NCBI GenBank assembly: GCA_963755715.1
Contig: CAVWLW010000069.1
Location: 146,890 to 210,889, forward strand
DNA from: an uncultured delta proteobacterium
Lineage (GTDB): Bacteria > Desulfobacterota > Binatia > UBA9968
Length of the DNA stretch: 64,000 bases
Direction: 5' to 3'
The notes under the pieces are model-generated. The model was not told the DNA's origin and searched no databases. It was given only the letters and a program-made list of their open reading frames with translations. This document shows positions 16,821 to 61,134 of the stretch, piece by piece. The position numbers were made by a program, and so were the translations under genes. How positions within the stretch are numbered: position 1 is the first letter of the stretch; the number at the start of each line of letters is the position of its first letter.

Positions 16821-17518
16821 AGCTGCGAGGCATCCAGCACCGGCCCGCGAATTTTCTTCAAAGTTTTTCGCGCAGCGTTGTACTGCAAGCTGAGTTTGAT
16901 CATCGCGATCCCATCCGCCGGGCGGAGAATGGCGCGAGCGAGAAGACTCTGGACGTTGATATCGCCGTTGGAATCGAGTGCTCGCATGACGTTCTCTGGA
17001 ATTTGCGTGGATGCGGTATCGACGACCGCCCGGACGACTGCGAAAGGCAACCGGCGCTCCCGCGCAAGCCGCGCCTGTGCGGCGCTCTCCATGTCGGTCG
17101 CTGTCGCCTGCGTTCGTTGGGCTAGAGCCTGCTTTTCGCTTGGAGTTTGTACGATGGCAGCGCTTTCCACCAGCGGGTCTGTGCCAACGGGACATTTGGC
17201 GGACAAGGCTTGATAGAGTCGTCGATGCCATTCGCTGCTGACGGCGTGACTTTCGCCCGTCACCCCTACAATGAGTTTAGGAAGCAACACGCTTCCCGCA
17301 GTCAGGCGGTCGTCGAGGGCAGCGGCATAACCCCAGCTCAAGAGCGCGGTCGCCCCTCGCGATACCAAAAGCGCGCCCGCGGCATAGGTGCGCTCCGATC
17401 CTATCCCGGAGTACGCAACCAATATATTGTCTCCGATCGTCGTGCATGTTCCCGCGGGAATCGCTTGCCGCGTTAGGCTTTTTAGCTCCCAGGGAAGCGC
17501 GACCACGATTCCCAGCAT
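16772..17518 (-). CDS. hpnG: Hopanoid-associated nucleoside phosphorylase
   Basis: PNP/UDP family motifs SGIG, LLSWGYAAAL, DMESAA and VVRAVVD. Translationally coupled to shc. Confidence 0.82.
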   Translation of the reverse strand: MLGIVVALPWELKSLTRQAIPAGTCTTIGDNILVAYSGIGSERTYAAGALLVSRGATALLSWGYAAALDDRLTAGSVLLPKLIVGVTGESHAVSSEWHRRLYQALSAKCPVGTDPLVESAAIVQTPSEKQALAQRTQATATDMESAAQARLARERRLPFAVVRAVVDTASTQIPENVMRALDSNGDINVQSLLARAILRPADGIAMIKLSLQYNAARKTLKKIRGPVLDASQLYLDCLSLDAATPSRA

Positions 17519-19473
17519 CAGCTTTCGTCGGCTGTCAAATTGCGATAGCGGGCCAACGCCAGCAGCGGAAAGTATTTGTCGTAACCGTGATATTTTAAGT
17601 AAAAGACCCGCGGGAATCCGGGCGCGTTGAAGTCGGGGTCACTCCAAAAGCCGTCCGACTCTTGGGTTTGCAAAAGGAACTCGATACCGAGCTGAACAGA
17701 CTCTGAGTGCACCTCACCGGCGCTCATCAAGCCCAACACAGCCCACGCCGTGTGAAAGGACGTGCTGCGCTCGGCGTGGTCGCGTTTGGACGGCTCAAAA
17801 TAAGTATCGCATCCTTCCCCCCAGCCGCCGTCGGCGCGCTGTATGCTCTTGAGCCAAGCGGCGCCGCGCCGCACCGACTCGTGTGTTGGGCTCACGCCTT
17901 CCTCTTCCAAAGCGATCAGCACGGACCAAGTGCCGTAGATATAATTCGTTCCCCACCGCCCGTACCATGAACCATCCGGCTGCTGTGAACGGAAAAGGTA
18001 TTCCAGACATTTTCCTTTGACGGATTTAATTTCCGGCCCATCAGCCAGCCGCGCCAGCAACATTAGACAGCGCGCGCTTACGTCCTCTGTGGGCGGATCT
18101 AGCAGGGCGCCGTGATCAGCGAAGGGAATTTCGTTGAGGTAGGTGTGATCGTTATCAGCATCAAACGAAGCAAAGCCGCCGTTTTTCGACTGCATGCCAC
18201 AAATCCATTCAGCTGCGCGCTGCACCGGATTGTCAAAACATCGTTCGCCGCTCTTATGCATCCCATAGGCAACCGCTGCCGTGTCGTCGAGATCGGGATA
18301 GTGAGAATTTATGAACTGAAAGGGCCATCCGCCGCCTCTCACTCTTGGCCTGTTAAAAGTCCAGTCTTGAGGCTCCTCCAGCAGTTGTTTTTCAGTCAGC
18401 CAAGCGAATGAATCTTTGACTGCGCTCAAGCTCCGCTCGTCGCCGATCTCCTGAAGCGCGATACAAGCCCACGCGCTATCCCACACCGGCGACATGCACG
18501 GCTGGCAATAAGCGCTCCGTTCACTGACCACCAACAGATCCTTGATCGCTTGTCTTTCCTGAGCTCGCAACGGATGGTTGGCTGGATAACCAAGAAACTC
18601 CAGCGCTTCGTAGGCATTGACCATCGCAGGAAAAATGGCCCCCAGCCCGCCGGCACCATTGAGCTGTTCCAATATCCAGGCTTCGGCCTTTTTGATGGCG
18701 CGGCGGCGAAGCCAGCGCGGCATTAATGGATATAGCTTGAGTCCCAGCCGATCCAGCACGAGCAAGACCCGATTAAGAACAGAACGAGTGGGAAAATAGC
18801 CGCTTCGTTGCCAAGGATCTCCGTCGAAGAGTTCTCGGATCGAGATTTTTTTTGGATTTCGCGCCCGCGCTTTGAACGTGTAGAGAATAAACAACGGAAC
18901 CATGACGGTGCGCGACCAATAAGAAACTTTGAACAGGTGAAAAGGAAACCAGCGCGGCAGTAAAACAATTTCCACCGGTAAAAATGGCACAGCGCGCCAG
19001 GGCAGCTGCTCGAAAATGGCGAGCGCAATCCGCGTAAATACGTTGGCCCGAGAGGCTCCGCCAAGGCGAAGAATCGCCTCCCGAGCTCTGACCATATGAG
19101 ACAGCTCAGGCGAGTCACCGGCAAGCTTGAGCGCATAGTAGCATTTCACCGAGCAACTGATTTCAGCGCCGCCGCCGTAGTAAAGCGGCCAACCGCCGCC
19201 TTCGAGTTGATGAGCGCGCAGATACGCAGCGAGCTTGCGTTCGAGCCCCTCGTCGAGCTCGTCGGCGTAATGCATCATCAGAATATACTCGGCAGGAATG
19301 GTGCAATCGGCCTCCAGCTCGAAGCACCAGTACCCTTCAGCGTGTTGCGCGCGGAGAAGCGCGCTCGCAGCACCCTCTATGGCGTGCTCGAGCTTGGCTA
19401 ACGGCAGTTTTTTAGAAAGACCGATCGTTTCTCGTTCTGGCGAATGATCGGCGTAGGCGATGCCGTCCCTCAT
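17518..19473 (-). CDS. shc: Squalene-hopene cyclase
   Basis: YPDLDDTAAV, QW repeats, WYGRWGTNYIYGTW and GFPRVFYLKYHGY. Start uncertain, ORF open from 19521. Confidence 0.97.
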   Translation of the reverse strand: MRDGIAYADHSPERETIGLSKKLPLAKLEHAIEGAASALLRAQHAEGYWCFELEADCTIPAEYILMMHYADELDEGLERKLAAYLRAHQLEGGGWPLYYGGGAEISCSVKCYYALKLAGDSPELSHMVRAREAILRLGGASRANVFTRIALAIFEQLPWRAVPFLPVEIVLLPRWFPFHLFKVSYWSRTVMVPLFILYTFKARARNPKKISIRELFDGDPWQRSGYFPTRSVLNRVLLVLDRLGLKLYPLMPRWLRRRAIKKAEAWILEQLNGAGGLGAIFPAMVNAYEALEFLGYPANHPLRAQERQAIKDLLVVSERSAYCQPCMSPVWDSAWACIALQEIGDERSLSAVKDSFAWLTEKQLLEEPQDWTFNRPRVRGGGWPFQFINSHYPDLDDTAAVAYGMHKSGERCFDNPVQRAAEWICGMQSKNGGFASFDADNDHTYLNEIPFADHGALLDPPTEDVSARCLMLLARLADGPEIKSVKGKCLEYLFRSQQPDGSWYGRWGTNYIYGTWSVLIALEEEGVSPTHESVRRGAAWLKSIQRADGGWGEGCDTYFEPSKRDHAERSTSFHTAWAVLGLMSAGEVHSESVQLGIEFLLQTQESDGFWSDPDFNAPGFPRVFYLKYHGYDKYFPLLALARYRNLTADES

Positions 19474-19498
19474 ACAGGAGATAATTCTCCCGGCGACA

Positions 19499-20680
19499 TC
19501 ACAGCGCTCTATCAACCTCAAGGTCGCTGGTTTCGGCCGGCGACCAGCGCGTTGAAGTGGGCGTTAAAGGTAGTCGGAACGCAGCAAGATAAAAAAGCAA
19601 CCTCAACAGACCATCGTTTTGGACCGCGAGCCGGCTCATCAAGACAGTCCCCTTGACGCTTAATCGTGATATCTTAACCTGACTTCCATCTGTGTAATCA
19701 AGGTTCTTGTTGATCTTGCGTAGGGTTAACAGAGCGAAGCCGATTGCCCAGAGACAGAAATTGCGGATCCCGACTTCCTGCCCGGGAATAAGTAGTGTGT
19801 ATGTCAAGGCGTTTTTCAAGTGTCCGTGGGCGATGCCGATAAGACGCTGAACCCCGCGCTGGAACTCTTCTCGTTTCTCTGCTCTCGTTAAATCGCGGAG
19901 ATCGAGTCCTTCTTCAGCGAAAATCTCTCGGGGCAACCAGCACGCGCCATTCCGATAGTCTTCCCAAACATCTTTCAGGATATTTGTCATCTGCAGGCCC
20001 TGGCCGAAGGAAATTGCCAACCCCATTAAGGCGTCATGACGCTTGGCGATTTCCGGCGAATGGAGACAAAACAGACTAGTCAGCATCTGGCCCACAACGC
20101 CTGCAACGTAATAGCAATAGCGATCGAGGTCCTCGAGAGTTTGCAGACCGTGTTTCTCATTTCGCAGCTGAAATTGTGTCATGCCTTGAGCCATGGTGCG
20201 GACGCAATGCTGCAATGCTTCGCGTTGAGCCGCAGAGAAGCTACGGGCGATTTGGATCACGCGAGGAGCGTTACGAATCAATTCGTGTTCGGCTGGCGAT
20301 GTTTGCTTCGAGAGCGACGCGCACAATTGCCGAGCGAACAGCGCGGCATTTTTTCCGCCGTCTAGGGCTCTTAAAAACTGCTGACAAAAATAGTTCTTTC
20401 GTGCGCCGTCCAAGAGCGGCTCGTCTTCGATGGTGTCAACGATGCGGCAAAGGAGATAGGCATTGGATACAACTCGGTAAAGCGCGGCAGGAAGCTGCGG
20501 AATGGTCAAGGCGAACGTGCGGGAGACTCCCTGCAACATGTCAGATTGAAAGTCATCGTCGCCGGGCCATGCCTTGTTCGGCCCGAGATCTACAGGATCC
20601 GAAAGAGGGGGCGAAGTAAAAGTAAATTGAGGCACGGCGCTTTCGTTTCTAAAAGCATCATGCTCGATCCGTCCCTTCAT
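19499..20680 (-). CDS. Single-enzyme squalene synthase (squalene/phytoene synthase family)
   Basis: VSRTFALTI, YLLCRIVDTIED, YCYYVAGVVG and LQMTNILKD motifs. Confidence 0.88.
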   Translation of the reverse strand: MKGRIEHDAFRNESAVPQFTFTSPPLSDPVDLGPNKAWPGDDDFQSDMLQGVSRTFALTIPQLPAALYRVVSNAYLLCRIVDTIEDEPLLDGARKNYFCQQFLRALDGGKNAALFARQLCASLSKQTSPAEHELIRNAPRVIQIARSFSAAQREALQHCVRTMAQGMTQFQLRNEKHGLQTLEDLDRYCYYVAGVVGQMLTSLFCLHSPEIAKRHDALMGLAISFGQGLQMTNILKDVWEDYRNGACWLPREIFAEEGLDLRDLTRAEKREEFQRGVQRLIGIAHGHLKNALTYTLLIPGQEVGIRNFCLWAIGFALLTLRKINKNLDYTDGSQVKISRLSVKGTVLMSRLAVQNDGLLRLLFYLAAFRLPLTPTSTRWSPAETSDLEVDRAL

Positions 20681-20766
20681 GGTTTACGTTCTCTTGCGGC
20701 CGTCGCTTTTACTTCTTAAATGGTAAATCTTTGCTCTCATTCTGAACGGCTCTTCACTGCGTGCGA

Positions 20767-21717
20767 CTACTCGGTTCTGCCAGTCACGTAACTGGCCATC
20801 TCCCGCAGCGGCTCCGCCGCTTTGCCGTAAGGCTCGATTTCCCTGAGGCATTCAGCAAAAAGGGCTTGTACGCGGTCCCTGGCCTTTGCTTTCCCGGCGA
20901 CCGCTAAATAATTAGCTATGCCCTTGTGGTTGTCCTCCGAGATTTCATGATCGTCCAATATGTCATCCGTAATCTGGAACGCCAGTCCCAAAGAGCGAGC
21001 GTATCGGGTAATCCTGTCGAGATCCTCGCGTGTGGCTCTTCCGATTATCGCTCCGACACGGGCTGCTGTCGTGATCAGCGCGCCTGTCTTCAGGCGATCG
21101 AGATCCTCCAAAACAGCTGGTGTTACCTTGCGTTTCTCCAATTCGAACTCTTTACTTTGTCCGCTGATCATTCCTCGTACCCCGGCTGCCCCGGATATCT
21201 CGCGAATGAGCTTTGCGATCAAAGCACCCCCCAAAATGCGTGTAACGGCGGGGTCAGACACGATAAAAAAAGCTTCCGTAAGTAAAGCATCGCCGGCGAG
21301 AAGCGCTATTGCCTCGCCAAAGCGCTTGTGGCAAGAAGGTTTTCCTCGACGGAAGTCGTCATTGTCGAGTGAAGGCAGGTCGTCGTGTATCAGCGAGTAG
21401 CAATGAATCAACTCAATCGCGCAGGCAAAAGACAGCATCGGAGCGCGTTTGGCGCCGAACAGTTCTCCGACCGCTAAAGTCAATGTGGGGCGGAACCGTT
21501 TCCCCGCATCCAGAACGCTATAACACATGGCTTGATGAAGCAGCGGTGGAATTTGGGGAACTCTTGTTTTCAGGTATTGGTCTAAAGCATCGTCAATGAG
21601 CGATTTACACTGATCAAAATATTGGCGGCTATCGATAGCTGTCTGAGCGGCATTCGTCTGGCCCGAGTCTTTATGAGTTCTCTTTTTGAGAGTGGTAATC
21701 GTGAAGTTGTATCCCAT
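20767..21717 (-). CDS. ispA: Farnesyl diphosphate synthase / geranyltranstransferase
   Basis: GKRFRP, SLIHDDLPSLDNDDFRRG, KTGALI and FQITDDILD motifs. Confidence 0.9.
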   Translation of the reverse strand: MGYNFTITTLKKRTHKDSGQTNAAQTAIDSRQYFDQCKSLIDDALDQYLKTRVPQIPPLLHQAMCYSVLDAGKRFRPTLTLAVGELFGAKRAPMLSFACAIELIHCYSLIHDDLPSLDNDDFRRGKPSCHKRFGEAIALLAGDALLTEAFFIVSDPAVTRILGGALIAKLIREISGAAGVRGMISGQSKEFELEKRKVTPAVLEDLDRLKTGALITTAARVGAIIGRATREDLDRITRYARSLGLAFQITDDILDDHEISEDNHKGIANYLAVAGKAKARDRVQALFAECLREIEPYGKAAEPLREMASYVTGRTE

Positions 21718-43041: not shown

Positions 43042-44688
43042 TTAGTAATCGATCACGATCCGATCGCGTACACCTTTGACGCCCGGCACGCCCAGAGTCG
43101 CCCGCACCGCGGCGAGTTTCTGTCGTGGCGTCGCCACCCGGCCTTCGAGGTAAACGGTGCCGTCATCGACGTAGGACACCTGCACACCGTCGATGGCGCG
43201 GTCGCGAATCGCCTTGTAGATCTCGATCTGCAATTTTCTTTCCGTCAACGCTTCGCCGTTTGGCGCTGGCGGGCGGCGCTTGATCACCATGCGCTTGTTA
43301 TTAGGTATCTCCGGGGAGCTTTTTGCCGGGGCATTTACCGATGGATCAGGAGCCTCGGTTTGTGCGCGCTCGGCTGTTTCCGGCGCCGGCACGATTTCGT
43401 CATTTGTGTTATTTGGCGCAGGCGCCGAGCTGTCAGGCGGGGGTGTGACGTGGGATACCGTGTCGTGATCGTTTTCCAGCTTGTTTGCCGCCAACGGCGC
43501 CGCGGGCTGCGCACCCTCATGCTGTCGCCCAAAGTCGGGCAACTTTGCTAAATATGCGCGCACGAGCGGGACGAGATTGGGTTGGTTCTCCATGCCGATA
43601 AACAGTGCCGCAGCAGCAATCAGGCAGAGGATCACCAAAGTACGAACGCCGCTGCGATGCGCGTGCCGCGGCTTATGCCAGCCGATATCTACGAAGAATG
43701 GCTCGAATTCCGGCTCTGATGACCGGCCGTTTTTTCGTTCGTTTTCGCGCTTCTCCTTTTTACTGCTCCGATGCGCGCTTGTTAATGGACTGCTCGATTC
43801 CCACGATCGAGGGATGGCCTCGTCTCGCGCCGTATTTTCTTTTTGAGGCGGAGAGGCGTGGGGTGTCTTCTCGGAGTGGTCGACGAGCTTCAACTCGTGG
43901 GCCGCCTCCTCTATGTCTGCCGTCGTCACGGAGCTTTTAGCCTTGGCGTAGGCGATCAATAACGCATTATCGCAGATTACGTTGATGAGGCGCGGGATGC
44001 CTTTCGAATAATGCGCAAGGCGCACGATCGATTCTGCATCGAACAAGTCTTGTCTTTCGCATTGGACAGTTTTGAGTCTGGAATCGACGTATGAGCTTAC
44101 CTCACCCTCCTGTAGGGGCTTCATCCTGCAACGAACAGCTACTCTTTGTTTAAGCTGAAGTAGACCGGCTCGATCGAGCTTTTCTTCAAGCTCGGGCTGA
44201 CCTACCAAAACAATTTGGATGAGCTTTTCTGTATTGGTCTCCAGATTGGAAAGAAGCCTGAGTTCTTCGAGCATCTCCTCGTCTAGGTTCTGAGCTTCAT
44301 CGATCAACAAAGAAACAATATCGCCCCTCTCGAGCTGTGCGATCAAATAGTCATAAAACTGCCCGATCATCGCCAACCGCTCGCCTGTAGGATTCGGCGA
44401 CAATCCTAGATCGCTCAGAGTGAGCCGGAGCACCTCGTTAAAAGTGAGATGGGGATCGAAAATCCAAGCCGTATGAACGTTGCGATCCAGGTTGCCCAGC
44501 AGCCTTTTCAGCAGAGTCGTTTTTCCCGTGCCCGGTTCGCCCGTGACAACGATGAAGCCCTTGCGGGCAGCGATGCCGTAACGAAGCGTCGCAAACGCTT
44601 CGTCATAGCAGGCGTTGGTAAAGAAAAATCGCGGATCCGGCGTGATATTGAAAGGCGACTCCGGAAATCCAAAGTGTTCGTTGTACAT
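43042..44688 (-). CDS. ExeA/GspA-like AAA ATPase with TM helix and C-terminal BON domain
   Basis: MYNEHFGFPESPFNITPDP, GEPGTGKT, IDEAQ and GIPRLINVICD. BON segment GTVYLEGRV..GVKGVRDRI. Confidence 0.88.
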   Translation of the reverse strand: MYNEHFGFPESPFNITPDPRFFFTNACYDEAFATLRYGIAARKGFIVVTGEPGTGKTTLLKRLLGNLDRNVHTAWIFDPHLTFNEVLRLTLSDLGLSPNPTGERLAMIGQFYDYLIAQLERGDIVSLLIDEAQNLDEEMLEELRLLSNLETNTEKLIQIVLVGQPELEEKLDRAGLLQLKQRVAVRCRMKPLQEGEVSSYVDSRLKTVQCERQDLFDAESIVRLAHYSKGIPRLINVICDNALLIAYAKAKSSVTTADIEEAAHELKLVDHSEKTPHASPPQKENTARDEAIPRSWESSSPLTSAHRSSKKEKRENERKNGRSSEPEFEPFFVDIGWHKPRHAHRSGVRTLVILCLIAAAALFIGMENQPNLVPLVRAYLAKLPDFGRQHEGAQPAAPLAANKLENDHDTVSHVTPPPDSSAPAPNNTNDEIVPAPETAERAQTEAPDPSVNAPAKSSPEIPNNKRMVIKRRPPAPNGEALTERKLQIEIYKAIRDRAIDGVQVSYVDDGTVYLEGRVATPRQKLAAVRATLGVPGVKGVRDRIVIDY

Positions 44689-44733
44689 GGTTTTTACCCT
44701 CGCGAAACGTCGTTCTCGCGCGGCGCGGATAAA

Positions 44734-46350
44734 CTAATTGAGCCGATCAAAAAAAGCATCTTCTTTGTGCACGTAACCGCGGACGCTTTCACTCTCCATA
44801 GAACGTATCTTGAAATACTCGCCGCTCCTTCCAACCAGTTGAATTCGTGTTCCGGGACGCAGCGTGGCGATAACGTCCGATTTCGCATCCGGCTTTTCCC
44901 GGACAAAGGAATTTCCGATGACTTCAAAACGAGCCCGCGACGATGCCGGCTCTCGGCTTGAGCTCTGATCCCTCACAGAGGCCCGCTGGACAGTTTCTGG
45001 CGGCACCGAGGGATCAATGCGTTTTGGCTTCAGACCGGCGAGATCTTTATCTTTGTTCTCGATTCTTTCCAGTCTACGCTTACTTGCCGGCGTCAAAGAT
45101 TTTTTGACGCTATAGGGGCGCGCGGACTCTAACACAGGCGGATCCTGTCGCTCCGTGAGTTTAACCGTATCTTCATCGCTTGGACCGGTCGTCAAAACAC
45201 GTAAGATTCGCTCCGGAAGCGGCACGACGGCCTCTTTGATTTTTTCTATTTCTATATTGTCGCTCCCAAGCGAGAGATAATTTGAATTCTGCCGGTAGGA
45301 GAAAAACTCGACGACTCCCAGGACGAGGACGAGCGTCGCAAACACGGCCGCCAGTCCTGCCCATCGCGTTTCGTTGGCGTGGAAAGGCGGAGTTGTCTGC
45401 GTGCGGCTTTCAAAATCCGCCTCTCCATCTTGAGCCATGCGGCTTTCGTTTATGATTTCTCGGCGGCAGTCGATCTCTTCAGCCGGAATTTCTAATTTTG
45501 GCGCTATCAGCGAGACAGATGGCAACGATTTGGGATAAGGCTCTTCAAGATGAAGGTCGGCGGCGGCCTCAGCGATCATCTCCGCGTTAACCACTTTTTG
45601 CGATTTTGCGTATGCAATAAGTAGCGCATTATCGCAAATCACATTAATGAGTCGAGGAATACCTTTGGAATAGTATGAAATCCGCTCGATGGCGGTGGTC
45701 GCAAAGATAGCTTTCCCTGAATAGCCCACGGCCGCGAGTCTAGAATCAATGTAGGAAGAAGTTTCATGGCTCTCGAGCGGCACGAGTCGAGAGCGAAGAA
45801 CGATCCGTTGTTTGAGCTGACGAAGTGACGGTTTTTCGAGCTTGGATTCGAATTCAGGTTGGCCAAGCAATACGATTTGGAGCAGCTTTACACCTGCGCT
45901 CTCCAGATTCGAAAGCAGTCTCAGCTCCTCAAGGACATCGTCACGCAGATCCTGCGCTTCGTCAAGCAATAAAGCGACAATGTGATCGTCTCTGAGCTGT
46001 TCGATCAAATAGTCATAAAACTGCCCGATCATCGCCAGTCGATCCGGTGTTGGACTCGGTGGCAATCCTAGATCGCTCAGAGTGAGCCGGAAAATCTCGT
46101 TAAAAGTGAGATGCGGATCGAAAATCCAAGCCGTGTGGACGTTCCGATCAAAGTTGCCCAGCAACCTTTTCAGCAGAGTTGTTTTTCCCGTTCCGGGTTC
46201 GCCTGTAACGACAATGAAGCCCTTGCGGGCTTCGATCCCGTAACGAAGCGTCGCAAACGCTTCGTCGTAGCAGGAGTTGGTAAAGAAAAATCGCGAGTCC
46301 GGCGTGACATTAAACGGCGGCTCGCGTAGCCCGAAGTAATCCTCGTACAT
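44734..46350 (-). CDS. ExeA/GspA-like AAA ATPase with TM helix and C-terminal SH3 domain
   Basis: Same ATPase motifs as 43042-44688. SH3b segment VREKPDAKSDVIATLRPG...GYVH. Confidence 0.88.
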   Translation of the reverse strand: MYEDYFGLREPPFNVTPDSRFFFTNSCYDEAFATLRYGIEARKGFIVVTGEPGTGKTTLLKRLLGNFDRNVHTAWIFDPHLTFNEIFRLTLSDLGLPPSPTPDRLAMIGQFYDYLIEQLRDDHIVALLLDEAQDLRDDVLEELRLLSNLESAGVKLLQIVLLGQPEFESKLEKPSLRQLKQRIVLRSRLVPLESHETSSYIDSRLAAVGYSGKAIFATTAIERISYYSKGIPRLINVICDNALLIAYAKSQKVVNAEMIAEAAADLHLEEPYPKSLPSVSLIAPKLEIPAEEIDCRREIINESRMAQDGEADFESRTQTTPPFHANETRWAGLAAVFATLVLVLGVVEFFSYRQNSNYLSLGSDNIEIEKIKEAVVPLPERILRVLTTGPSDEDTVKLTERQDPPVLESARPYSVKKSLTPASKRRLERIENKDKDLAGLKPKRIDPSVPPETVQRASVRDQSSSREPASSRARFEVIGNSFVREKPDAKSDVIATLRPGTRIQLVGRSGEYFKIRSMESESVRGYVHKEDAFFDRLN

Positions 46351-46606
46351 AAAATTTTCTCGGATGGACGATTGGGCGAAATTACACCATGCCACCGATA
46401 ACGGTTCGCCGGATCGACTTTAAACCGAACACCTTGGTTTCGGTCGGGCACCAAATCAGTGTCACGACCATCTCATGTCGATATAAAAGAAGCAAATTCG
46501 GTTCCTGCACTTGCCGGATCTATCCATGCGTGATTTGAAGTAAGCTGTCGGGCTTAAGTGAGAAGTCCGGCGTTTGACAAGTCGCTGTACGACTCGCGTT
46601 ATCCGG

Positions 46607-50174: not shown

Positions 50175-51539
50175 CTACAAAAGAGCTACATTGCCACGGC
50201 TGGTGTCTTTGAGCGCATTGCGCGTATCGAAAATCAATGGGCTGAACTCGGCGACCATGGCATAGTCGAACGCGGAATGGTCCGTCAGAATCGCGACTAA
50301 ATCCATAGACTGCAGCACACTCGGGGTCAGTTCGACTGACTTGAGAGTCTTGTCGTTAATTTGAACCATCGGGATATAAGGATCGGTGAAATGGATCGAC
50401 GCGCCCTTCTCATCCAGCCCCATTAAAATCTGCAGCGCGGGCGACTCTCGAACATCATTGGTGTCGCGTTTATAGGCGACTCCCAACGCAAGGATGTTGG
50501 CGCCGTTGAGACATTTACGTTTCCCATTGAGAGCATCCGAGATGCCCCGGATAACAAAGGCCGGCATCTGACTGTTGATGTGACCGGCGAGTTCTATCAA
50601 GCGCGGTTCGCATCCCTTCATGCGCGCCTTCCAAGTCAAATAATACGGGTCGACGGGAATGCAATGACCCCCGAGACCCGGCCCCGGATAAAAAGGCATA
50701 AAACCGAACGGTTTGGATTTTGCCGCCTCAATGACTTCCCAGACATTTATGCCAAAGCTGTGGCAGGCTAAAGCCATTTCGTTGGCGAGCGCGATATTCA
50801 CGCTGCGAAAGGTATTCTCCAAGAGCTTCACCATCTCGGCGCAATCGGTCGATGAGACGGAAAACACATTGTCGATAAATTGGCGATAGAACAATACGGC
50901 CATCTCGGCACAATGCGGAGTCACACCGCCGACGACCTTGGGAATATTTCGCGTGTTATAAGTTGAGTTTCCCGGATCGACCCGCTCCGGCGAATAAGCC
51001 AAAAAGAAATCCGTCCCAGCTCTTAACCCGGATTCCTCAAGAATAGGCAAAACCACTTCTCGCGAAGTTCCCGGATACGTCGTGCTCTCCAGGATGACCA
51101 GTTGCCCAGGCCGAATATGGTTCCGAATCACTTCGACGGCCGCGATCACGTAGGACAACTCGGGATCTTTGTTTTTTCTTAAGGGCGTTGGAACACAGAT
51201 GTTGATCGTGTCGAGATCCCCCACCGCGGACAGCGACTGAGTTGCCCGCAACTTGCCATCGGCGATAAACGACGCTACCGTTTCACTGGAGATATCGGGA
51301 ATATAAGAAATGCCGGCATTGATCGAATTGACTTTCTCCTTGATGAGATCAATACCGGTTACATGGAAACCTTCCCTGGCCATTTCCACCGCCAGCGGCA
51401 GACCGACGTAACCCAATCCTATAATACCGACTTTGGCTGAACGGTTTCGGATGCGCCGTTTTAGCTCGCGTCCCAGATTGGGCACTTGCGTCATTATTTT
51501 ATCGCCGTAAGACAGAACTGTCTCCCCTCGTAGTTCCAT
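50175..51539 (-). CDS. UDP-N-acetylhexosamine 6-dehydrogenase (WbpA/WecC family)
   Basis: GLGYVGLPLA, ICVPTP, LESTTYPG, YSPER, KLLEN and GGHCIPVDP. RBS AAGGAGG. Confidence 0.93.
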   Translation of the reverse strand: MELRGETVLSYGDKIMTQVPNLGRELKRRIRNRSAKVGIIGLGYVGLPLAVEMAREGFHVTGIDLIKEKVNSINAGISYIPDISSETVASFIADGKLRATQSLSAVGDLDTINICVPTPLRKNKDPELSYVIAAVEVIRNHIRPGQLVILESTTYPGTSREVVLPILEESGLRAGTDFFLAYSPERVDPGNSTYNTRNIPKVVGGVTPHCAEMAVLFYRQFIDNVFSVSSTDCAEMVKLLENTFRSVNIALANEMALACHSFGINVWEVIEAAKSKPFGFMPFYPGPGLGGHCIPVDPYYLTWKARMKGCEPRLIELAGHINSQMPAFVIRGISDALNGKRKCLNGANILALGVAYKRDTNDVRESPALQILMGLDEKGASIHFTDPYIPMVQINDKTLKSVELTPSVLQSMDLVAILTDHSAFDYAMVAEFSPLIFDTRNALKDTSRGNVALL

Positions 51540-51609
51540 TAACACTCCTCCTTAAAATGGTGATCGCCGGATTCGTTCGATAAGCGTCCGGTGCGCCGTT
51601 ATGCTGCGC

Positions 51610-52719
51610 TTATTGAATGCGGAATTGAGACGGCATGCATAGATTGATCGGCATGAGCAACAACTTGCATACCGACGGGATCGGCAGAGTCAAGGTTTCC
51701 CACGCAACGTTGAGAGTTCTTCGGCTTAAGAGAGATCCAAAGCTCGCGCCGTCCAACATATACTGATCGACGATTTTGTGGACCGCTTTGAGCGTTAAGT
51801 TGCCGAAAACAGGTTGGCCCAGGTAGAACCGCTGCAAAATGCCGTCGGGCAGTGAGATCAATCGTCGGCTTTCCAAATAACTCAACAAAAGATGAAGATA
51901 GGTCAGCGCTGTCGATTGATCGATCCAGGCAAAAATGTTTTCCCAACGCAGGCTGTCGCCCATCTGTTGCAAAAGAAAAATAAGGTCCAGGGCCGCGATC
52001 ATGCCGCCGACCTCTTTGAAGTCTTGCGCCCAATGGACCGCGAGATAAACAACCTGGAGTTCCGGAGAGAGTCGATGGACGGTCCTACCCTGAAACATAG
52101 ACGCTTTTATCTGCGAAGAAACGTGCGACGGTTGAAAAACACGGCCATGGCTCGCATGGTTTTTCGCCGAGATCAGACGATGATGAAGCTCGACCCAGAC
52201 CTGCTTCTCGTCGTGAAAAAACGGCATCACGTGATGGTGCGAATCGTATGTTTTATGCGGCGCATCGGAAGTTTGGCGGTAGCCAAGACCGTACAGCAAC
52301 GTTGCCATAGGGGCTAACGATTCTACCGGGACCAACAGGTCTATGTCGCGCATCGGTCGCAGGTGAAATTCGGGATAAAATTCTTCGGCGATCGAGATGC
52401 CCTTGAGCAGCGTAAGTTGGGGCACAGAACCGCAACTGGCATCGATGATCTCGGTCATGGCTTCGCGGTGATCCGCGCCGATCCATCGTGCCGTGAGATC
52501 GGCGGCTTTTAAAGACTGCCAATGGCGTGAAGTGAAGTTTTCTTGATTCTCTTTCGCGGCGTGAAAACAGGCCGGGCCCAAGCCGGATCGAATGATCCAA
52601 TCGAGCTGCGCGTCATCGAAATCGCCCAGCGAAAGATCGGTGCGCCCTCTCGAGACGGTCTCAAACAACGTCAGCAATTTCGCTCTTGCCGGCGAGCTTT
52701 CGCAGCGCATCGTACTCAC
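51610..52719 (-). CDS. Nucleotidyltransferase (NTP_transf_5-like)
   Basis: LLKG...FY...LRPMRDIDLLV, VELHHRL and LAVH motifs. Confidence 0.85.
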   Translation of the reverse strand: MSTMRCESSPARAKLLTLFETVSRGRTDLSLGDFDDAQLDWIIRSGLGPACFHAAKENQENFTSRHWQSLKAADLTARWIGADHREAMTEIIDASCGSVPQLTLLKGISIAEEFYPEFHLRPMRDIDLLVPVESLAPMATLLYGLGYRQTSDAPHKTYDSHHHVMPFFHDEKQVWVELHHRLISAKNHASHGRVFQPSHVSSQIKASMFQGRTVHRLSPELQVVYLAVHWAQDFKEVGGMIAALDLIFLLQQMGDSLRWENIFAWIDQSTALTYLHLLLSYLESRRLISLPDGILQRFYLGQPVFGNLTLKAVHKIVDQYMLDGASFGSLLSRRTLNVAWETLTLPIPSVCKLLLMPINLCMPSQFRIQ

Positions 52720-52742: not shown

Positions 52743-53633
52743 TTACGAAAATAAACCCGGCGCGGCGCCATCATTCTGGCGCGAAAGCGCAGGTAGGGTC
52801 GACACAAGATCGCTTACCAGTTCACAGCTTGAACGAAGGTCGGCCGAACGAAGCTTGTAGCAAGCCGCGTTACAGGCGATTGCGATGGCGGCAGGCAAGC
52901 CGTCTTCCGTGTGTGCGAGTGGGTTTAGAGCCTGAGCAAATAATCGGGTGGCCGCTTCGCCCTTGCTGATACTTTGTAGCGTCGCACCTGTTTGGTCCTT
53001 GGGAGAATACTCCAGGAAAAACATCGCAGTCACAGGCACAGGTTGAGAAAGGGTTTGATTCGGCAGCATCGGCGTCGGCACGTGAAAAGTTCGAGATGTG
53101 CGAAGGATTTGGGCCGGCAGTGGATAGGCCTCCGGAGGCTCTCGTTTCAGGCATAGCGCGTGCGGATAGGGCGTCACCTTCATGGTTCGCAAATTTAAGG
53201 GAGCAAGCTCGTCGCTCAGATAACGGAAGCCGTGATGCAGCAAGCCCCAGGTCATGGTGGATTTGCCCTGTCCCGATGGGGCGACCAGGAGGATCGCATT
53301 GCCAGAAATTTCCAGCGCCGCCGCATGAACAAAGTAGAGGTCACCGCGCAGGCGCTGCAGCTCGATCGTCAGATCCTTTTCGAAAAGAAAAATAAGTTCG
53401 CCGTCATCGAGCGCCGGCAGCGGGGGACATCCTGCACGTAGGATGCAATATTCACCTCGCCCGTTGTTTTCGTTGATGGTGTATTCCAGGTTTGCACGGG
53501 CGTCATCTTGACGAAGCATCGAGCCATAGCCGTTTGCCAAAAGATTCCATATGGCGCGGTTCTGACATGAGATCTGCACGACGCGATCAAAAATAGAAAG
53601 CGTCAACAGACGTGAGGATGTTATTGAACTCAT
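52743..53633 (-). CDS. HPr-kinase-related Ser kinase
   Basis: VHAAAL, Walker A APSGQGKST and YLSDE. Confidence 0.85.
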   Translation of the reverse strand: MSSITSSRLLTLSIFDRVVQISCQNRAIWNLLANGYGSMLRQDDARANLEYTINENNGRGEYCILRAGCPPLPALDDGELIFLFEKDLTIELQRLRGDLYFVHAAALEISGNAILLVAPSGQGKSTMTWGLLHHGFRYLSDELAPLNLRTMKVTPYPHALCLKREPPEAYPLPAQILRTSRTFHVPTPMLPNQTLSQPVPVTAMFFLEYSPKDQTGATLQSISKGEAATRLFAQALNPLAHTEDGLPAAIAIACNAACYKLRSADLRSSCELVSDLVSTLPALSRQNDGAAPGLFS

Positions 53634-53731
53634 GTCGTGAAAGGCCGATGCCGCAAATGGTATTGACTCTGTACCCGCAGCGCCGCCATTCCAACAGTCG
53701 AAATTACCGCGCTGTGGTTAGCGAAGCTCCT

Positions 53732-53748
53732 GGCCCAGCGGCTGGGCC
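53732..53748 (-). other. GC-rich hairpin just after the peptide stop codon
   Basis: GGCCCAGC-G-GCTGGGCC with no U-tract. Confidence 0.55.
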
Positions 53749-53752
53749 GTCA

Positions 53753-53968
53753 TTAACTGCCGGCTTGCCCGGACTTGGATCCGTTCGGTTGCTGATTCTG
53801 ATCCGTTTCCTTGTCAACTTTGTAACTATCTCTGCTCTTAGTGCTCGATCTCGAAGCTCCGCTACCGGCTGCGGCAAAAGCCGGCAGTGCTTTCAGGGTC
53901 AAAATCATCGGCACCGCATACGCTGCTTTCTTGATAAAGTCTCGTCGCTCGGATTTTTCTTCAAACAT
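53753..53968 (-). CDS. 71-aa putative RiPP-like precursor with twin-arginine signal
   Basis: AAGGAG 7 nt before the ATG. Sequence MFEEKSERRDFIKKAAYAVPMILTLKALPAFAAAGSGASRSSTKSRDSYKVDKETDQNQQPNGSKSGQAGS*. It is hidden inside the 267-aa ORF call. Confidence 0.8.
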   Translation of the reverse strand: MFEEKSERRDFIKKAAYAVPMILTLKALPAFAAAGSGASRSSTKSRDSYKVDKETDQNQQPNGSKSGQAGS

Positions 53969-54029
53969 GGGATGTCTCCTTTCATTGAACATAAATTTAA
54001 ATTCATCGGGATTCGGCAAATTCACCCGT

Positions 54030-54359
54030 TCAACATTCTTCCAGGAGCTTCGATCGGCGCAACGTCTCGACCGTAGCCAGCACGTCCCTACGAGCCGTCG
54101 GGTAGTCGATCTCGAATGCTTGGCAAAGCTCGTGCGTGATTTCGTCCGACGTACGAATCCCATCACAACGCTCCCATATGTAGGTCGCGGTTTTGTTGAA
54201 CTGGTGAATAAACTCCTCCCGGCGGTCGAGCACAACCGTTTCTCCTTCAACCACGCGGGTTCGTATATCCGGCCGCCGCTTCGGTCGAAGCATCGAGGAT
54301 CGCGGCGCATCGAGATTGCCATGAGTTGTCCCCGCTGCTGTAGCTTTGTATTCCTGCAT
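54030..54359 (-). CDS. PqqD-family RiPP recognition element
   Basis: VEGETVVLD..IHQFNKTATYIWERCDG..I..LCQAFEID..TARRDV..LRRSKLL. RBS AAGGAGG. Confidence 0.9.
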   Translation of the reverse strand: MQEYKATAAGTTHGNLDAPRSSMLRPKRRPDIRTRVVEGETVVLDRREEFIHQFNKTATYIWERCDGIRTSDEITHELCQAFEIDYPTARRDVLATVETLRRSKLLEEC

Positions 54360-54536
54360 CGCTTGCCTCCTTTCTCCAGAAGATTTTTACTCACTTCATG
54401 AAGCGTAAATACGATCTTTTTAAATATTTCGACTCCGAGTAAACAACCACAGCACGACGGCGACTTGCAAGACCGGTCTGCCGGCTCCTGCGCAGTCTTG
54501 ACAAGATGGTTTCGATCGTGTCTTGACTGTTCTCGA

Positions 54537-56465
54537 TCAAGCCGTTTCTCTGGCAATCCGCAAGTTGCGCAGGACGTCCTTTTTAGTTTGCTGACGACGC
54601 AGTTGTTCCGTGGTGTCCATGTCGGTTGGGCGAAAAGTCGGGACCATTTCGCAGAGCACCTCTAACGCCAGCCAAGGCTTGCCGTTGATCGCCAGCCGCT
54701 CCATTTCCTCGATCTTTCGGGTGACAGAATCTAAGTCGGCTACCCAGCCCGATTGCACTCGTTTAATCTTTTCGACTTCCGACGGGACGATCATTTCGTC
54801 CATCGCGACCAACTCCTCGCGCAGCTTTTCTCCCGGCCGCAGGCCGACGACTTGGATGGCGATCTCGTCGTCAGGGATAAAACCCGCGAGACGAATCAAA
54901 TGACGCGCCATTTCCATAAGCTTCACCTGCTCGCCCATCTCTAGCACGAATATGTCTCCGCCGCGCGCGAGGGCGCCCGACTGGAGCACCAATTGAACCG
55001 CCTCCGGAATCGTCATGAAGTAGCGGGTCATCTCGGGATGGGTAACCGTTACAGGGCCGCCCTGCTCGATTTGCTTAAGAAACAGGGGAACCACGCTGCC
55101 ATTGCTCCCCAGGACATTGCCAAAGCGCACGGCCGTGAATATCGTTTTGACTCCTTCAGCGCTCTTTGCCAACGCTTGGATGTACATTTCACCGACGCGT
55201 TTGGTCGCACCCATGACGTTGGTCGGGTTGACGGCTTTGTCGGTCGAAATTAGCACGAACCGCTCGATCTTTTTTCGCAGCGCGAGCTGAATCAGACGGT
55301 GAGTGCCGACGACGTTGTTCAGCACGGCTTCTCCCGGATGTTGCTCCATCATCGGCACATGCTTATATGCCGCCGCGTGAAAGATGATTTGCGGATTCTC
55401 TTGGAGAAAAACCTGTTCGATGGGCCTGATGTGCTTCACGTCAGCAAGCACGGAAACCCGGTTCACGTCGGGAAACGAACGCGCGAATTCCATGTCTATG
55501 TCGTAAAGCGCGCTTTCGCTCTTATCCAAAAGAATCAGACGCGCGGGCTCATATTTCGCGATCTGCCGAGCCAACTCAGAGCCGATCGATCCACCCGCAC
55601 CCGTCACCAGGATCCTCTTGCCCTTCACCAGGTTCTGCACGGGGCCGATATCCAACCCTACCGGCAACCGCTCCAGGAGATCTTCGATCGATAAATCTTG
55701 GATCTGGCTGGCGCTGACTTTGCCATTTTGCAGCTTCGCCACGCCCGGGAGAGTTTTGATCGGAATCTTGAACAGCTCCAAGGCTGTGAGAATTTGCCGG
55801 ACCAACGCAGGTGAAGCGCTCGGGATCGCGAGAAGAACTTCAGCAATCTTGTGCGATCGCAGAATCTTGGGGAGGTCTTGCCGCGAGCCGAGCACGGGCA
55901 GCCCATGAATACGCTGACCTATCTTGCTTGCACTGTCGTCGATAAAACCTATCGGTTCGTAATCATAGAGAGCGCCATTGTTTTTTATATCGCGAACGAT
56001 CATCTCGCCCGCATCTCCCGCCCCATAGATCAAAACACGCTTGCCTCGATGCACCTGCCCCACGCCATGATAGAGGCGGCGGGCCAGCCGACTGCCCCCC
56101 ATGAAGAAAATCAGCAGCAAGGAATCAATGATAAAAACCGACAGCGGATATTTTACGAGACCCATGCCCCAATGAACCAAAACATAAAAAACAGCGGTAC
56201 TCGAGAGAACTCCATAAATGACATTCCGGAGATCCCAAATACCGGTATAACGCCAGAGTCCTTGGTAAAGCCGCAGGGGAATAAAGATGACTCCTCGAAT
56301 CAGGACGAGCCAAGGGATCATCTGAATGAAAAGCGCGATTTCCTGAGCCGGAATCACGCCATCGAATCTAATCCAGAAAGCCAAATAATTGGCCAGCGCG
56401 ATCAATACGATGTGGAATCCGACGTTGAGAAATCGCCGAAATTTTAGAAGCATTGATTTGGTCAT
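54537..56465 (-). CDS. Membrane UDP-GlcNAc 4,6-dehydratase (CapD/PglF/WbpM family)
   Basis: Four TM helices, [34 protein letters not shown] and RFGNVLGS. Confidence 0.93.
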
Positions 56466-56652
56466 GAGAATATCTCCAATGCCGATCGTGAACTGCCTTA
56501 CTGGTGCGTCCGGCGGCAAGATTGAAAGGAAAAAATACTGCGAATCGGGAACTTTTCAGCTCCCGATCCTTCTACCCTAAGTGGTCATGCTAAGAGGAAA
56601 CGATTCGGAAAACGAAATAGAGGAAAGCATTCAGGAGACAAATAATTCGGGA

Positions 56653-59225: not shown

Positions 59226-59999
59226 TCAGACGGCACGTGCTATCCCCAAGACGTTCCAGGTCGTCTCGTCGGGGTTCCGATCGAATTCCGGGAAAGCTCC
59301 CAAGCGTACAGGAGCAAAGTCACAGCGTTCTAGAAACAAATCCAATTCGAGGGGGAAGAAAAAGCGCATCAGATGAGTCTCTTCGGTTTCGGATCTCAGC
59401 CGGTCTCCCTCCATTTTCCACAAGTGATAAGTCACTTTGCAGAGATGGCGCTGGACGTCAAGTTGCCCGGAGGCGAAGCGCAGTATTTGGCCGCCGTCCG
59501 TGGGGATCGATTTGACGCGATCGCTGGGCCCTTCTTTGAGCACTGCGGGACCGTACCACACGTCGAAAATAAGAAGGCCGCCTGATCGCACATGCTGCCT
59601 GGCGCTTCGAAGAGCCGCAAGCACGTTATGGTTTTCCAATTGATAGCCTAGCACCGCGAACATCATCAGCGCCGCATCAAACGATTGATCGACCCGTAAA
59701 CTGCAGATATCTCCTTCATAGAAAACAGCCTTGGCGTCGAGCTGCTGATCCGCTGCTTTCTTGCGGGCCCTATCAAGCATTGTATTTGAGCGGTCCACGC
59801 CGACAATTTCGTAACCCTGCTGGGCGAGTGGCAAGGCATGGTTTCCCGTGCCGCAGCCAAGATCCAAGATGTTCCGAACGGGTCGGTCGCCGTACGTTTT
59901 GAGCAACCTAGCGATCAATCCGCACTCTTCTAAATAGTCCTTGTCTTTGTAGAGGACATCATACGTACCCGCATATTCCGAACCAAAGACCCCGCTCAT
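59226..59999 (-). CDS. Class I SAM methyltransferase
   Basis: YDVLYKDKDY, ILDLGCGTG and FDVWYGPAV. ATGA overlap with the aminotransferase. Confidence 0.88.
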   Translation of the reverse strand: MSGVFGSEYAGTYDVLYKDKDYLEECGLIARLLKTYGDRPVRNILDLGCGTGNHALPLAQQGYEIVGVDRSNTMLDRARKKAADQQLDAKAVFYEGDICSLRVDQSFDAALMMFAVLGYQLENHNVLAALRSARQHVRSGGLLIFDVWYGPAVLKEGPSDRVKSIPTDGGQILRFASGQLDVQRHLCKVTYHLWKMEGDRLRSETEETHLMRFFFPLELDLFLERCDFAPVRLGAFPEFDRNPDETTWNVLGIARAV

Positions 60000-61134
60000 G
60001 AAAGGACCTCGTGCACGGCAGCGCACACCTCGTCCAGTTGCTCTGCTGTGAGCGCCAACCCCGAGGGGAAATATAATCCCTGACGAGCAATCCGCTCTGT
60101 TACTGGAAATCGCTCCTGCACGAATAATCCTCTCTGATGAAAAACTGGTTGCTCATGCAATCCCAAAAAAAATGGGCGAGTTTCTATGCCATGCTGTTTC
60201 AGCCTCTGCGCAAAAATAGTCGCGTCCATGCCGGTTTCTTCGGACAAGACGACACCGTACATCCAATAGACATTCCGGGCCCAGGGTTCCTCTACCGGCA
60301 ATTGCAAGCCCTTTAAGCCTGCGAGGCGCCGATTGTATTCCTGGCCGATCCAGCGCTTGCGCGCGACGATTTCCTCGAACCGTTCCAATTGAGCGAGGCC
60401 AAGTGCAGCCTGCAGGTTTGTAAGGCGAAAATTGAATCCGAGCTCCTCATGATGAAAACGCCGATTGGCTTGAAAACAGAGGTTACGCAAAGAGCGCGCC
60501 TTTTCAGCCAAGCTTGGGTCATCGGTGAGAACCATGCCACCCTCACCGGTCGTGATCAAGCTTATTAGCATAAAAACTGAAACAACTGAGCGTCCCGAAA
60601 TTACCGCAACGACGCCATGCGGAGTGGAGCGTGTCCCGTTTGGAGAGATATTCCGCCCCATGCACCTCCGCAGCGTCTTCAACAATGGCGAGGCCATGTT
60701 TCTCCGCCAGGTCCAGAATCGGATCCATATCCACCGGGTGTCCATATATATGTACCGGCATAATAGCGCGAGTCCGCGCGGTAATCTTCCTCTTCACTTG
60801 ATCGACATCCATGCACCACGTCCGAGGATCACAATCCACCAAAACCGGCACGCCGCCGTTATAAACAACCGCAAGAGCACAGGAAATGATCGTAAATGTC
60901 GGCATGATGACTTCATCGCCCGGCTTTAACCCGAGACAAGCTACCGACAACTTGGAGGGCGACTGTGCCGTTACTCACAGCAATCCCATAGCGCCGGCCG
61001 CAGTAAGCTGCCCATTTCTCTTCAAATTCTTCGATAAATCTGCCCGCCGAAGAAATCCAGCCGGTGCGTACACATTCCGAGACGTACTCTAACTCGCGTG
61101 CACCCAGATACGGCTCATTCACGGGTATCATCAC
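59996..61134 (-). CDS. DegT/DnrJ sugar aminotransferase (perosamine-synthase-like), two frameshifts
   Basis: Three consecutive frames: IPVNEP..GWISS..SNGTVAL, then PVHIYGHP..EDAAE..FSFYANK, then ITTGEGG. Shifts near 60950 and 60560. Confidence 0.85.

Follow-up and report, generated by a model that had tools for sequence, protein, structure and literature searches.

A four-gene cassette resembling the linear polyphosphorylated peptide systems of Bacillota, with a precursor leader apparently constrained like a twin-arginine signal peptide

How can a small modified peptide leave the cytoplasm when neither a dedicated peptidase nor an exporter is encoded beside it? This question is raised by a locus within a 64,000-nucleotide stretch of DNA from an uncultured delta proteobacterium (Desulfobacterota, Binatia; contig CAVWLW010000069.1), which was analysed as a whole and is here called the window. 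On its minus strand, a 71-residue open reading frame (ORF) lies between the genes for a PqqD-family RiPP recognition element (RRE; RiPP, ribosomally synthesised and post-translationally modified peptide) and an HprK-like kinase, and its N-terminus reads both as a twin-arginine translocation (Tat) signal and as a leader for the RRE. An initial annotation of this DNA had proposed a dual-purpose leader, in which RRE binding would hide the Tat signal until modification is complete and signal peptidase would take the place of a leader peptidase. According to our analysis, this mechanism is plausible and now has comparative support from related sequences. We lean, by a modest measure, toward the view that the ORF encodes the precursor of a linear, kinase-modified peptide resembling the linear polyphosphorylated peptides (LPP) of Bacillota; Tat would export this precursor, which the housekeeping signal peptidase would cut, and phosphorylation, export and cleavage are all inferred steps. 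What appears to be new is an LPP-like four-gene system outside Bacillota whose leader is constrained, as far as the sequences tell, like a Tat signal peptide.

The gene is read from the minus strand, from an ATG at 53968-53966 to a TAA stop at 53755-53753, and carries the following features.

53753..53968, minus strand: precursor peptide gene (P0001), 71 aa plus stop
53976..53980, minus strand: Shine-Dalgarno sequence AGGAG, 7 nt 5' of the ATG, read directly from the sequence
53927..53953, minus strand: codons of the twin-arginine (Tat-type) motif, S6-ERRDFIK-K14, assigned from counts in 40 peptides and the TIGR01409 score
53903..53920, minus strand: codons of the putative RRE-binding motif YxxPx[IV], Y17-AVP20-M-I22, within the hydrophobic region, assigned from conservation and a complex model
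53873..53881, minus strand: codons of the predicted signal-peptidase-I site, A30-F31-A32 (small-x-Ala, presumed cut after A32)
53861..53866, minus strand: codons of the near-invariant G35-S36, proposed phosphorylation site by analogy to core Ser3 of LPP
53756..53860, minus strand: codons of the hypervariable hydrophilic tail, residues 37-71, Ser-rich and Ser-ending in the window's clade only
53732..53748, minus strand: G+C hairpin with a 7-bp stem and a 3-nt loop, no T-run, beginning 4 nt after the stop

In the translated precursor, S6-E-R-R-D-F-I-K-K14 is followed by A-A-Y17-A-V-P20-M-I22-L-T-L and then by K26-A-L-P-A30-F-A32-A-A. The 39 residues beyond A32 include nine Ser and two Thr, counted by eye, and end with Ser71.

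This ORF is a real gene, with purifying selection on its leader. A protein search returned 15 homologues in which residues 4-36 are almost invariant while the remainder varies in sequence and length, and relatives from other phyla retain the same reading frame and motifs. When leader codons 1-37 were compared with those of two relatives at 77-80% identity (L041 and L042), 17 synonymously changed codons stood against 6 and 5 non-synonymously changed ones. Contigs from soil RNA libraries cover the ORF in three of four runs, each from a different study: run X2 covers 53704-53962, X11 covers 53805-53959, and one contig of X4 (53756-54302) spans the PqqD and peptide genes. For run X7, positions 53788-53979 are uncovered, a contig gap that proves nothing. 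The strong ribosome-binding site noted in the initial annotation is present as the AGGAG listed above. The GC hairpin that it placed after the stop also exists, but not as a canonical intrinsic terminator, a role we rejected: the element has no T-run, was not flagged by a terminator scan and folds with a z-score of only -1.9 against shuffles. Proteobacterial orthologues carry hairpins with T-runs at the equivalent place, as judged by eye from their downstream sequences. A longer ORF of 267 aa (53753..54556) was discarded as spurious, since it overlaps the PqqD gene in another frame, and an upstream in-frame ATG (MFNERRHP-) is not retained in the relative L040. Among the database entries of close relatives (P0002, P0003, P0004 and P0006), some have N-terminal extensions, the upstream start probably being mis-called, and others (P0004, P0006) have altered C-terminal tails that resemble frameshifts through the hairpin region. 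The precursor matches no Pfam or NCBIfam family at E <= 0.01, and a PDB search with the peptide profile gave chance-level matches only (E above 1).

What the family conserves was counted in 40 unique peptides collected from all loci with a hidden Markov model; near-identical relatives are included, and the rows are therefore not independent. L042, truncated by the end of its contig, was excluded from the counts, and the Lys-Arg variant L056 was added. L012 and the metagenome loci L049 and L050 were rejected as family members and likewise left uncounted, being ordinary Tat-signal enzymes that share the word RRDFIKKA without the AYxxP. The twin arginine is found in 39 of the 40 peptides, the remaining one having Lys-Arg; Phe stands at RR+2 in 38/40, Ile, Leu, Val or Met at +3 in 40/40, and Lys or Arg at +4 in 39/40. 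YxxP is equally constant (39/40, with one FxxP), and Gly-Ser is present in 38/40. Within these 38, the spacing from Tyr to Gly is exactly 18 residues in 37, Ala occupies position -3 from the Gly in 35, position -5 is a small residue in 37, and the segment between Tyr and Gly-Ser contains no more than one charged residue in 37. The tails of the Gly-Ser members measure 5 to 94 residues, are unrelated in sequence and range in composition from Lys/Pro/Glu-rich and Gly/Asn/Pro-rich to Ser-rich or Arg-rich. Judged from these counts, the constrained parts are the leader, the small-x-Ala site and the Gly-Ser two residues later. The initial annotation had itself named a lack of RR conservation among homologues as a result that would speak against it; the pair is kept almost throughout, and the leader it described, combining a Tat-type motif, a YxxPx[IV] RRE motif and a small-x-Ala site, is real and conserved across the 40 peptides. 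Two tail variants were seen on the side. The Lys-Arg member (L056 163-579, minus strand) has a 94-residue tail with repeated DNRGS-type units and an Arg/Lys-rich end, and six proteobacterial members (L045, L053, L054, L057, L058, L061) share a recurrent tail subtype, NNG[VI]G...PPPG or GNP-rich and in some cases with paired Cys, which may be under a constraint of its own.

Tat signals carry the consensus S/T-R-R-x-F-L-K in their n-region, and a short hydrophobic region with Pro and Thr, followed by a basic residue, is typical of them. The window peptide presents S-E-R-R-D-F-I-K, and an uncharged hydrophobic region followed by a small-x-Ala site recurs across the family; the constraint on RRxF[ILV]K is what recognition by TatC would demand. 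The genome is equipped for this route, encoding two tatC genes (205 and 192 bits, above the cut-off) and one bacterial signal peptidase I (sigpep_I_bact), with no match to the archaeal-type signal peptidase I model (TIGR02228) in the 93.6%-complete assembly. At least 15 larger ORFs of the genome combine RRxF[ILV]K with an uncharged stretch. When six family members were compared with the TAT_signal model TIGR01409, four matched at E <= 10 and only one reached the cut-off (16.8 bits). Tat reportedly accepts small, unstructured, hydrophilic passengers, so the hydrophilic tails would fit export by this pathway.

The second function of the leader was addressed with a complex model of the PqqD protein and peptide residues 1-45. 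It reached an ipSAE of 0.64 (median of three runs), compared with 0.00 for the best of three controls, a mark that, for calibration, 58 out of 80 solved complexes attained but only 2 out of 110 mismatched pairs. Contacts agreed between runs by at least 93%, and the partner pLDDT was at least 56. The confident interface pairs peptide residues 14-27 with PqqD residues 49-58, 61, 80-84 and 92-103, and, as modelled, the RRE would bind its leader in the usual strand-addition mode. Arg8 and Arg9 are not among the named contacts, and the modelled interface thus does not explain the near-invariance of RRxF[ILV]K. A precursor in this complex would have the entire hydrophobic core of its signal (residues 14-27) covered by the RRE and hence should be unable to engage the translocase.

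The LPP systems of Bacillota (LppA/B/K/N/S/D) offer a ruler against which this leader can be measured. In the available text of their description (Popov et al., Nat Commun 2026, PMC13381572), LPP precursors combine a conserved N-terminus, YxxPxVLxHQxIxFETxxS, with highly variable C-termini; LppK adds up to four phosphates to core Ser3, and LppS, a signal-peptidase-I homologue, removes the leader in a reaction that requires LppB. The names of mutagenesis primers in the same source place Y-16, P-13, V-11, L-10, F-3, E-2, T-1, A1, Q2 and S3 in LppA. Applied to the window peptide, the signal-peptidase-I rule for positions -3 and -1 suggests a cut after A32, and with this cut Y17, P20, I22 and L23 fall at -16, -13, -11 and -10, on the same ruler as in LppA. 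Because the LPP leader peptidase is itself a signal-peptidase-I homologue, as described there, analogy supports the idea of the initial annotation that signal peptidase stands in for a leader peptidase.

The leader could, however, be read differently. The peptide may be modified as we propose while its RR-hydrophobic leader is recognised by the RRE and kinase only, with no Tat export; the peptide would then stay in the cytoplasm or be processed and exported by unlinked proteins. We regard this as unlikely, even if it survives better than the other alternatives. RiPP leaders are often conserved for enzyme recognition alone, those of LPP function without any signal role in the available description, and the window peptide falls below the TIGR01409 cut-off, its short hydrophobic stretch ending at Lys26. 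Yet the positions under constraint are precisely those that Tat and signal peptidase I read, namely the RR, Phe at +2, a hydrophobic residue at +3, Lys at +4, the uncharged region, the small residue at -3 and Ala at -1, and the RR is not named in the modelled RRE interface of residues 14-27. Moreover, the LppA leader, read from the primer table, has no twin arginine and shows polar or charged residues where the window family is uncharged, and the Tat features co-occur with a lack of LppS- and LppD-type genes at the loci scanned.

The conservation of the full RR-x-F-[ILV]-K, kept in 38-40 of the 40 peptides and not required by Sec, also bears on a second alternative, that the leader is a Sec-type signal in which the twin arginine is merely a basic n-region. 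The short hydrophobic region with Pro and Thr, followed in many members by a basic residue, points the same way, and a peptide made bulky in the cytoplasm by polyphosphate or sugar would be a poor Sec substrate. A basic n-region, a hydrophobic core and an AxA site fit Sec as well, an unstructured hydrophilic peptide has no need of Tat, and bufferin precursors do use Sec signal peptides (PMC11626156, available text); on balance we consider a Sec route improbable.

Which residue would the kinase modify? Ser36, just past the predicted cleavage site, is by analogy with LPP the conserved candidate acceptor. The initial annotation had instead stressed a Ser-rich core ending in Ser. That description fits the window peptide but does not extend to the family, in which only 5 of 40 peptides have a C-terminal Ser; on this evidence, it is confined to the window peptide and those closely related to it. 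The same counts make it improbable that the kinase acts on Ser71, as in paeninodin and pseudomycoidin, with the nucleotidyltransferase glycosylating the phosphate and Ser36 conserved just for cleavage or binding. In the window peptide and the relatives nearest to it, the C-terminus is indeed Gly-Ser, as this alternative would have it, whereas relatives at 61-71% identity end in Asn or Pro, a paralogue in the same genome ends in Lys, and the tails of P0004 and P0006 are apparently frameshifted. In the linear LPP system, as described, the acceptor is core Ser3.

The genes around the precursor are all read from the minus strand, in the order Polysacc_synt_2, PqqD/RRE, precursor, HprK-like kinase, NTP_transf_5 and nucleotide-sugar dehydrogenase.

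54537-56519, minus strand: Polysacc_synt_2 protein
54030..54359, minus strand: discrete PqqD-family RRE, 109 aa (Pfam PF05402 at 2.1e-16, above cut-off)
52743..53633, minus strand: HprK-like P-loop kinase, 296 aa (TIGR04352 HprK_rel_A at 1.8e-21)
51610..52719, minus strand: NTP_transf_5 nucleotidyltransferase-fold protein, 369 aa (Pfam PF14907 at 1.2e-29)
50175-51545, minus strand: nucleotide-sugar dehydrogenase

The best NCBIfam match of the PqqD protein is the lasso PqqD chaperone (5e-11, below cut-off); TIGR04353, which we take to be the PqqD model of the 'HPr-rel-A system', is not among its six listed families. When a profile of 14 RRE orthologues was compared with the PDB, it matched TbiB1 at 4e-13, TfuB1 at 3e-11, PbaB1 (9x90) at 9e-9 and LppB (9x8z) at 3.6e-8; judged by these profile matches, the RRE is of the lasso-B1 type and not obviously closest to LppB. 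The kinase match to TIGR04352 amounts to 76.5 bits against a cut-off of 200 bits, which leaves it outside that family as defined, and no paper mentioning HprK-related kinase A or TIGR04352 was found. Nine kinase orthologues share a conserved GKST P-loop and LSDE motif, and the AlphaFold2 model of the kinase (pLDDT 87.5) retrieved phosphoenolpyruvate carboxykinases (top E 1.4e-7) and HprK/P (7e-5 to 1e-4) with Foldseek. Orthologues of the NTP_transf_5 gene adjoin the cassette in other phyla.

Equally informative is what the neighbourhood lacks. The window ORFs scanned include neither an Asn-synthase-like cyclase nor a transglutaminase-like peptidase, and neither an ABC exporter nor a signal peptidase; the same four gene types were not found in five relatives' loci scanned against Pfam, three of them cassettes (L020, L023, L024) and two lone copies (L028, L030). 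Locus L021, scanned as well, is cut 432 nt after the peptide. The absence of peptidase and exporter genes reported in the initial annotation thus holds for the window ORFs scanned and for these five loci.

The association of peptide, RRE and kinase recurs far beyond the window. A second cassette of PqqD, peptide and kinase genes, paralogous to the first, occurs in the same genome, on contig C44 (G000, locus L006 7860-9863). Its peptide (P0017) retains the leader, the tail is rich in Lys and Asp with Lys as the last residue, and what is left of the NTP_transf_5 gene is interrupted by two in-frame stops. When one genome per species was scanned, 12 loci were found in named metagenome-assembled genomes (MAGs), belonging to Thioalkalispiraceae, Thiotrichaceae, Chromatiales and other Gammaproteobacteria, one betaproteobacterium and Pyrinomonadaceae. 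PqqD and kinase flank the peptide in 7 of the 12 (L020, L022-L027), and the other five (L021, L028-L031) are lone copies; the two genomes in which these five lie also have, at another place, a full cassette that includes one more peptide copy (L032, L033). Twelve metagenome loci comprise two ordinary Tat-signal oxidoreductases and ten others, eight of which have PqqD and/or kinase adjacent, while neither gene is seen in the remaining two, whose contigs do not exceed 1.3 kb. In the class of G402, 9 of 400 sampled genomes hold the peptide, often in two or three copies, and PqqD and/or kinase are present in the fetched loci of eight of these nine. In the window's own phylum (401 genomes searched with the peptide profile), strong matches were confined to the window's genome, with one distant variant (G326, L008) and other weak matches in frames of very different length. 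Proteobacterial cassettes examined by Pfam sit among the housekeeping genes rpsT, murJ and ribF, which argues that the four genes are a conserved module and that a polysaccharide context is not universal. By analogy, this module of PqqD-type RRE, precursor, HprK-like kinase and NTP_transf_5 protein would be homologous in logic to the LPP systems. That the ORF is instead a chance frame or an unrelated small Tat-exported protein, with PqqD, kinase and nucleotidyltransferase acting elsewhere, is very improbable: the missing Pfam and NCBIfam matches and the lone copies away from the cassette would suit it, but synteny across several phyla, purifying selection on the leader, the fixed spacing of YxxP, a complex model that passes against its controls and the full cassettes found elsewhere in the lone-copy genomes checked all contradict it.

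Two further observations concern the copies outside cassettes. In the betaproteobacterial MAG, four lone peptide copies (L028-L031) lie away from the cassette L033, and L047 on a metagenome contig is grouped with them; their tails are Lys/Pro/Glu-rich, their downstream hairpins are near-identical, and they look like multi-copy precursors that a single cassette serves in trans. The two proteobacterial genomes also hold a more distant kinase and NTP_transf_5 pair (L034, L035; 26-27% identity to the window kinase), and no family peptide was seen at these two loci.

From these data a working sequence of events can be proposed. Y17-x-x-P20-x-I22 and the strand after it would be where the RRE binds the leader (residues 14-27), and the kinase would phosphorylate the near-invariant Ser36, perhaps repeatedly; the NTP_transf_5 enzyme may then extend the phosphate with a sugar or nucleotide, possibly drawn from a nucleotide sugar. 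The leader would at the same time be a Tat-type signal, with the n-region S-E-R-R-D-F-I-K-K, a hydrophobic region of residues 15-25, Lys26 and A30-F-A32. After release from the RRE, the housekeeping Tat system would carry the modified hydrophilic peptide across the membrane and the housekeeping signal peptidase I (LepB) would cleave it behind A32, so that these two general machines would stand in for the dedicated LppS and LppD of Bacillota. The dual-purpose interpretation of the initial annotation keeps its core here, in that the RRE is modelled on residues 14-27, tatC and lepB are present and LppS is signal-peptidase-like, and loses its emphasis on the C-terminal Ser. In its fullest form, which we put forward tentatively and hold as a possibility somewhat short of even, this would be a RiPP pathway with the Tat translocon as exporter: the RRE would act as a proofreading chaperone that masks the signal until Ser36 carries polyphosphate or a phospho-sugar, LepB would cut at the distance set by the Tyr(-16) ruler, and a phosphorylated peptide would result, periplasmic or secreted and perhaps acting in the exopolysaccharide or biofilm matrix.

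If this reading is true, this would be the first case, within the literature searched, of a natural RiPP precursor that carries a Tat signal; no paper joining Tat signal, RiPP and precursor peptide turned up and none of the listed matches for twin-arginine and RiPP was relevant. A single short sequence would serve an RRE, the Tat receptor and LepB one after the other, and the relation of dedicated RiPP peptidases to general secretion would come into view. The logic of RRE, kinase and NTP-transferase is, in this family, reduced to four genes in named Proteobacteria and Acidobacteriota MAGs and in the window's phylum. The cassette would also be a compact, testable system for the export of post-translationally modified peptides.

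A number of observations weigh against this picture. The window peptide scores 12.7 bits with TIGR01409, where the cut-off is 16.7; its uncharged run after the RR motif extends over only 11 residues before Lys26; and, together with its paralogue, it was missed by a crude genome-wide filter (RRxF[ILV]K plus 12 or more uncharged residues), a miss that reflects on the filter as much as on the peptide. One member has KR for RR, and the RR and basic residues could serve the kinase or another partner in place of TatC. The model, in turn, cannot exclude RR contacts, since residues that it does not name are only uncertain, and like complexes have been solved (TbiB1, TfuB1, LppB), so its pass may reflect that likeness and not be independent evidence. 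The RNA-library contigs may hold DNA carry-over and show neither strand nor transcript ends. On the side of the LPP parallel, the conserved Ser occupies core position 4 in the window family and position 3 in LppA; the LPP RRE, as described, presents the leader to the peptidase, which is impossible for the periplasmic active site of LepB; and lasso B1 proteins from proteobacteria and actinobacteria score better with the RRE profile than LppB does. Accordingly, the relation to LPP may be one of parallel descent from lasso systems, not of orthology. The acceptor Ser is assigned by conservation and analogy only.

The cassette lies in a polysaccharide region of the window that includes a sigma-54 response regulator, a GDP-mannose dehydratase, epimerases and a DegT aminotransferase, and the G+C content, followed from 44 to 62 kb, does not change abruptly at the cassette. 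The DegT/DnrJ/EryC1 aminotransferase gene (59996-60950, minus strand) may be split: ORF 59996-60745 matches only profile positions 172-359, and ORF 60543-60950 overlaps it upstream, which may reflect a frameshift or an assembly error. At 43042-46395 (minus strand), two tandem paralogues have the XrtA/PEP-CTERM-associated ATPase model TIGR03015 as their best match (260 and 256 bits, below the 324.5 cut-off) and carry long unrelated C-terminal extensions. Farther away, hopanoid-type genes occupy 3524-4606 and 17518-21717 (a radical-SAM protein with DUF3463, squalene-hopene cyclase, a squalene/phytoene synthase-like protein and a polyprenyl synthetase). A 1328-aa ORF at 7015-11001 (minus strand) joins FGGY kinase, 2-hydroxyacid dehydrogenase, SCP2 and class II aldolase domains, and a separate ORF at 12204-13220 (minus strand) has the FGGY N-terminal domain only.

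How does the family compare with systems already described? The LPP systems share with it a discrete RRE, a kinase resembling HprK and an uncharacterised NTP transferase without a macrolactam cyclase, a small precursor with a conserved N-terminus containing YxxPx[V/I] and a highly variable C-terminus, a conserved Ser three to four residues past the leader cut, and a leader peptidase of the signal-peptidase-I type. For the window, the setting is shared too, as LPP clusters often lie inside capsular-polysaccharide loci (PMC13381572, available text). The equivalence of LppN and NTP_transf_5 is assumed, the available LPP text giving no Pfam accession for LppN, which was inactive in a heterologous host. 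The differences lie in processing, export and host range. No LppS-type archaeal signal peptidase I was found in the window, the five relatives' loci scanned or the 93.6%-complete genome, and no MsbA-like LppD or other ABC-transporter domain in the window ORFs or those five loci, to which that search was confined. The window leader has a twin-arginine motif, an uncharged hydrophobic region and a small-x-Ala site, and the HQxIxFET part of LPP leaders is replaced in its family by an uncharged xxxP[AS]xA stretch. The family occurs in Gamma- and Betaproteobacteria, Pyrinomonadaceae MAGs and the window's phylum, whereas the authors of the LPP paper call LPP and paeninodins restricted to Bacillota, and its available text does not mention Tat, twin-arginine, Proteobacteria or Gram-negative (PMC13381572).

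Phosphorylated and phosphoglycosylated lasso peptides such as paeninodin and pseudomycoidin (PMC8498205, available text) likewise have clusters that unite a PqqD RRE of the B1 type with a homologue of HPr kinase and a nucleotidyltransferase, and use a [Y/W]xxPx[L/V/I] leader motif; the pseudomycoidin nucleotidyltransferase adds hexoses to the phosphate added by the kinase. There, the kinase targets a C-terminal Ser, which is unconserved here, and the window family has no Thr at the penultimate leader position. Neither a cyclase (C), a B2 cysteine peptidase nor an ABC exporter of the lasso type was found among the window ORFs and the five loci scanned.

A different parallel comes from redox-enzyme maturation proteins such as TorD and DmsD, cytoplasmic chaperones that bind Tat signal peptides. 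Their cargo shares with the window family an S/T-R-R-x-F-L-K-type motif, a moderately hydrophobic region and a basic residue before the AxA site, and in both cases a dedicated cytoplasmic protein binds, or in our model is predicted to bind, the hydrophobic region of the signal before export. Here the cargo would be an unstructured modified peptide of 9-96 residues and not a cofactor-containing enzyme, and the binder has the PqqD fold of an RRE and does not belong to the TorD family. Finally, bufferins and DAG-RiPPs, both modified by MNIO enzymes, show that a general secretion signal on the precursor can replace a dedicated leader peptidase and exporter: bufferin precursors carry a Sec signal peptide that is dispensable for modification (PMC11626156), and those of DAG-RiPPs a lipoprotein signal peptide (PMC13056109), according to the available texts. 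The window family would follow the same principle with two distinctions, in that the RRE motif appears to be embedded in the signal itself and the signal is of the Tat type.

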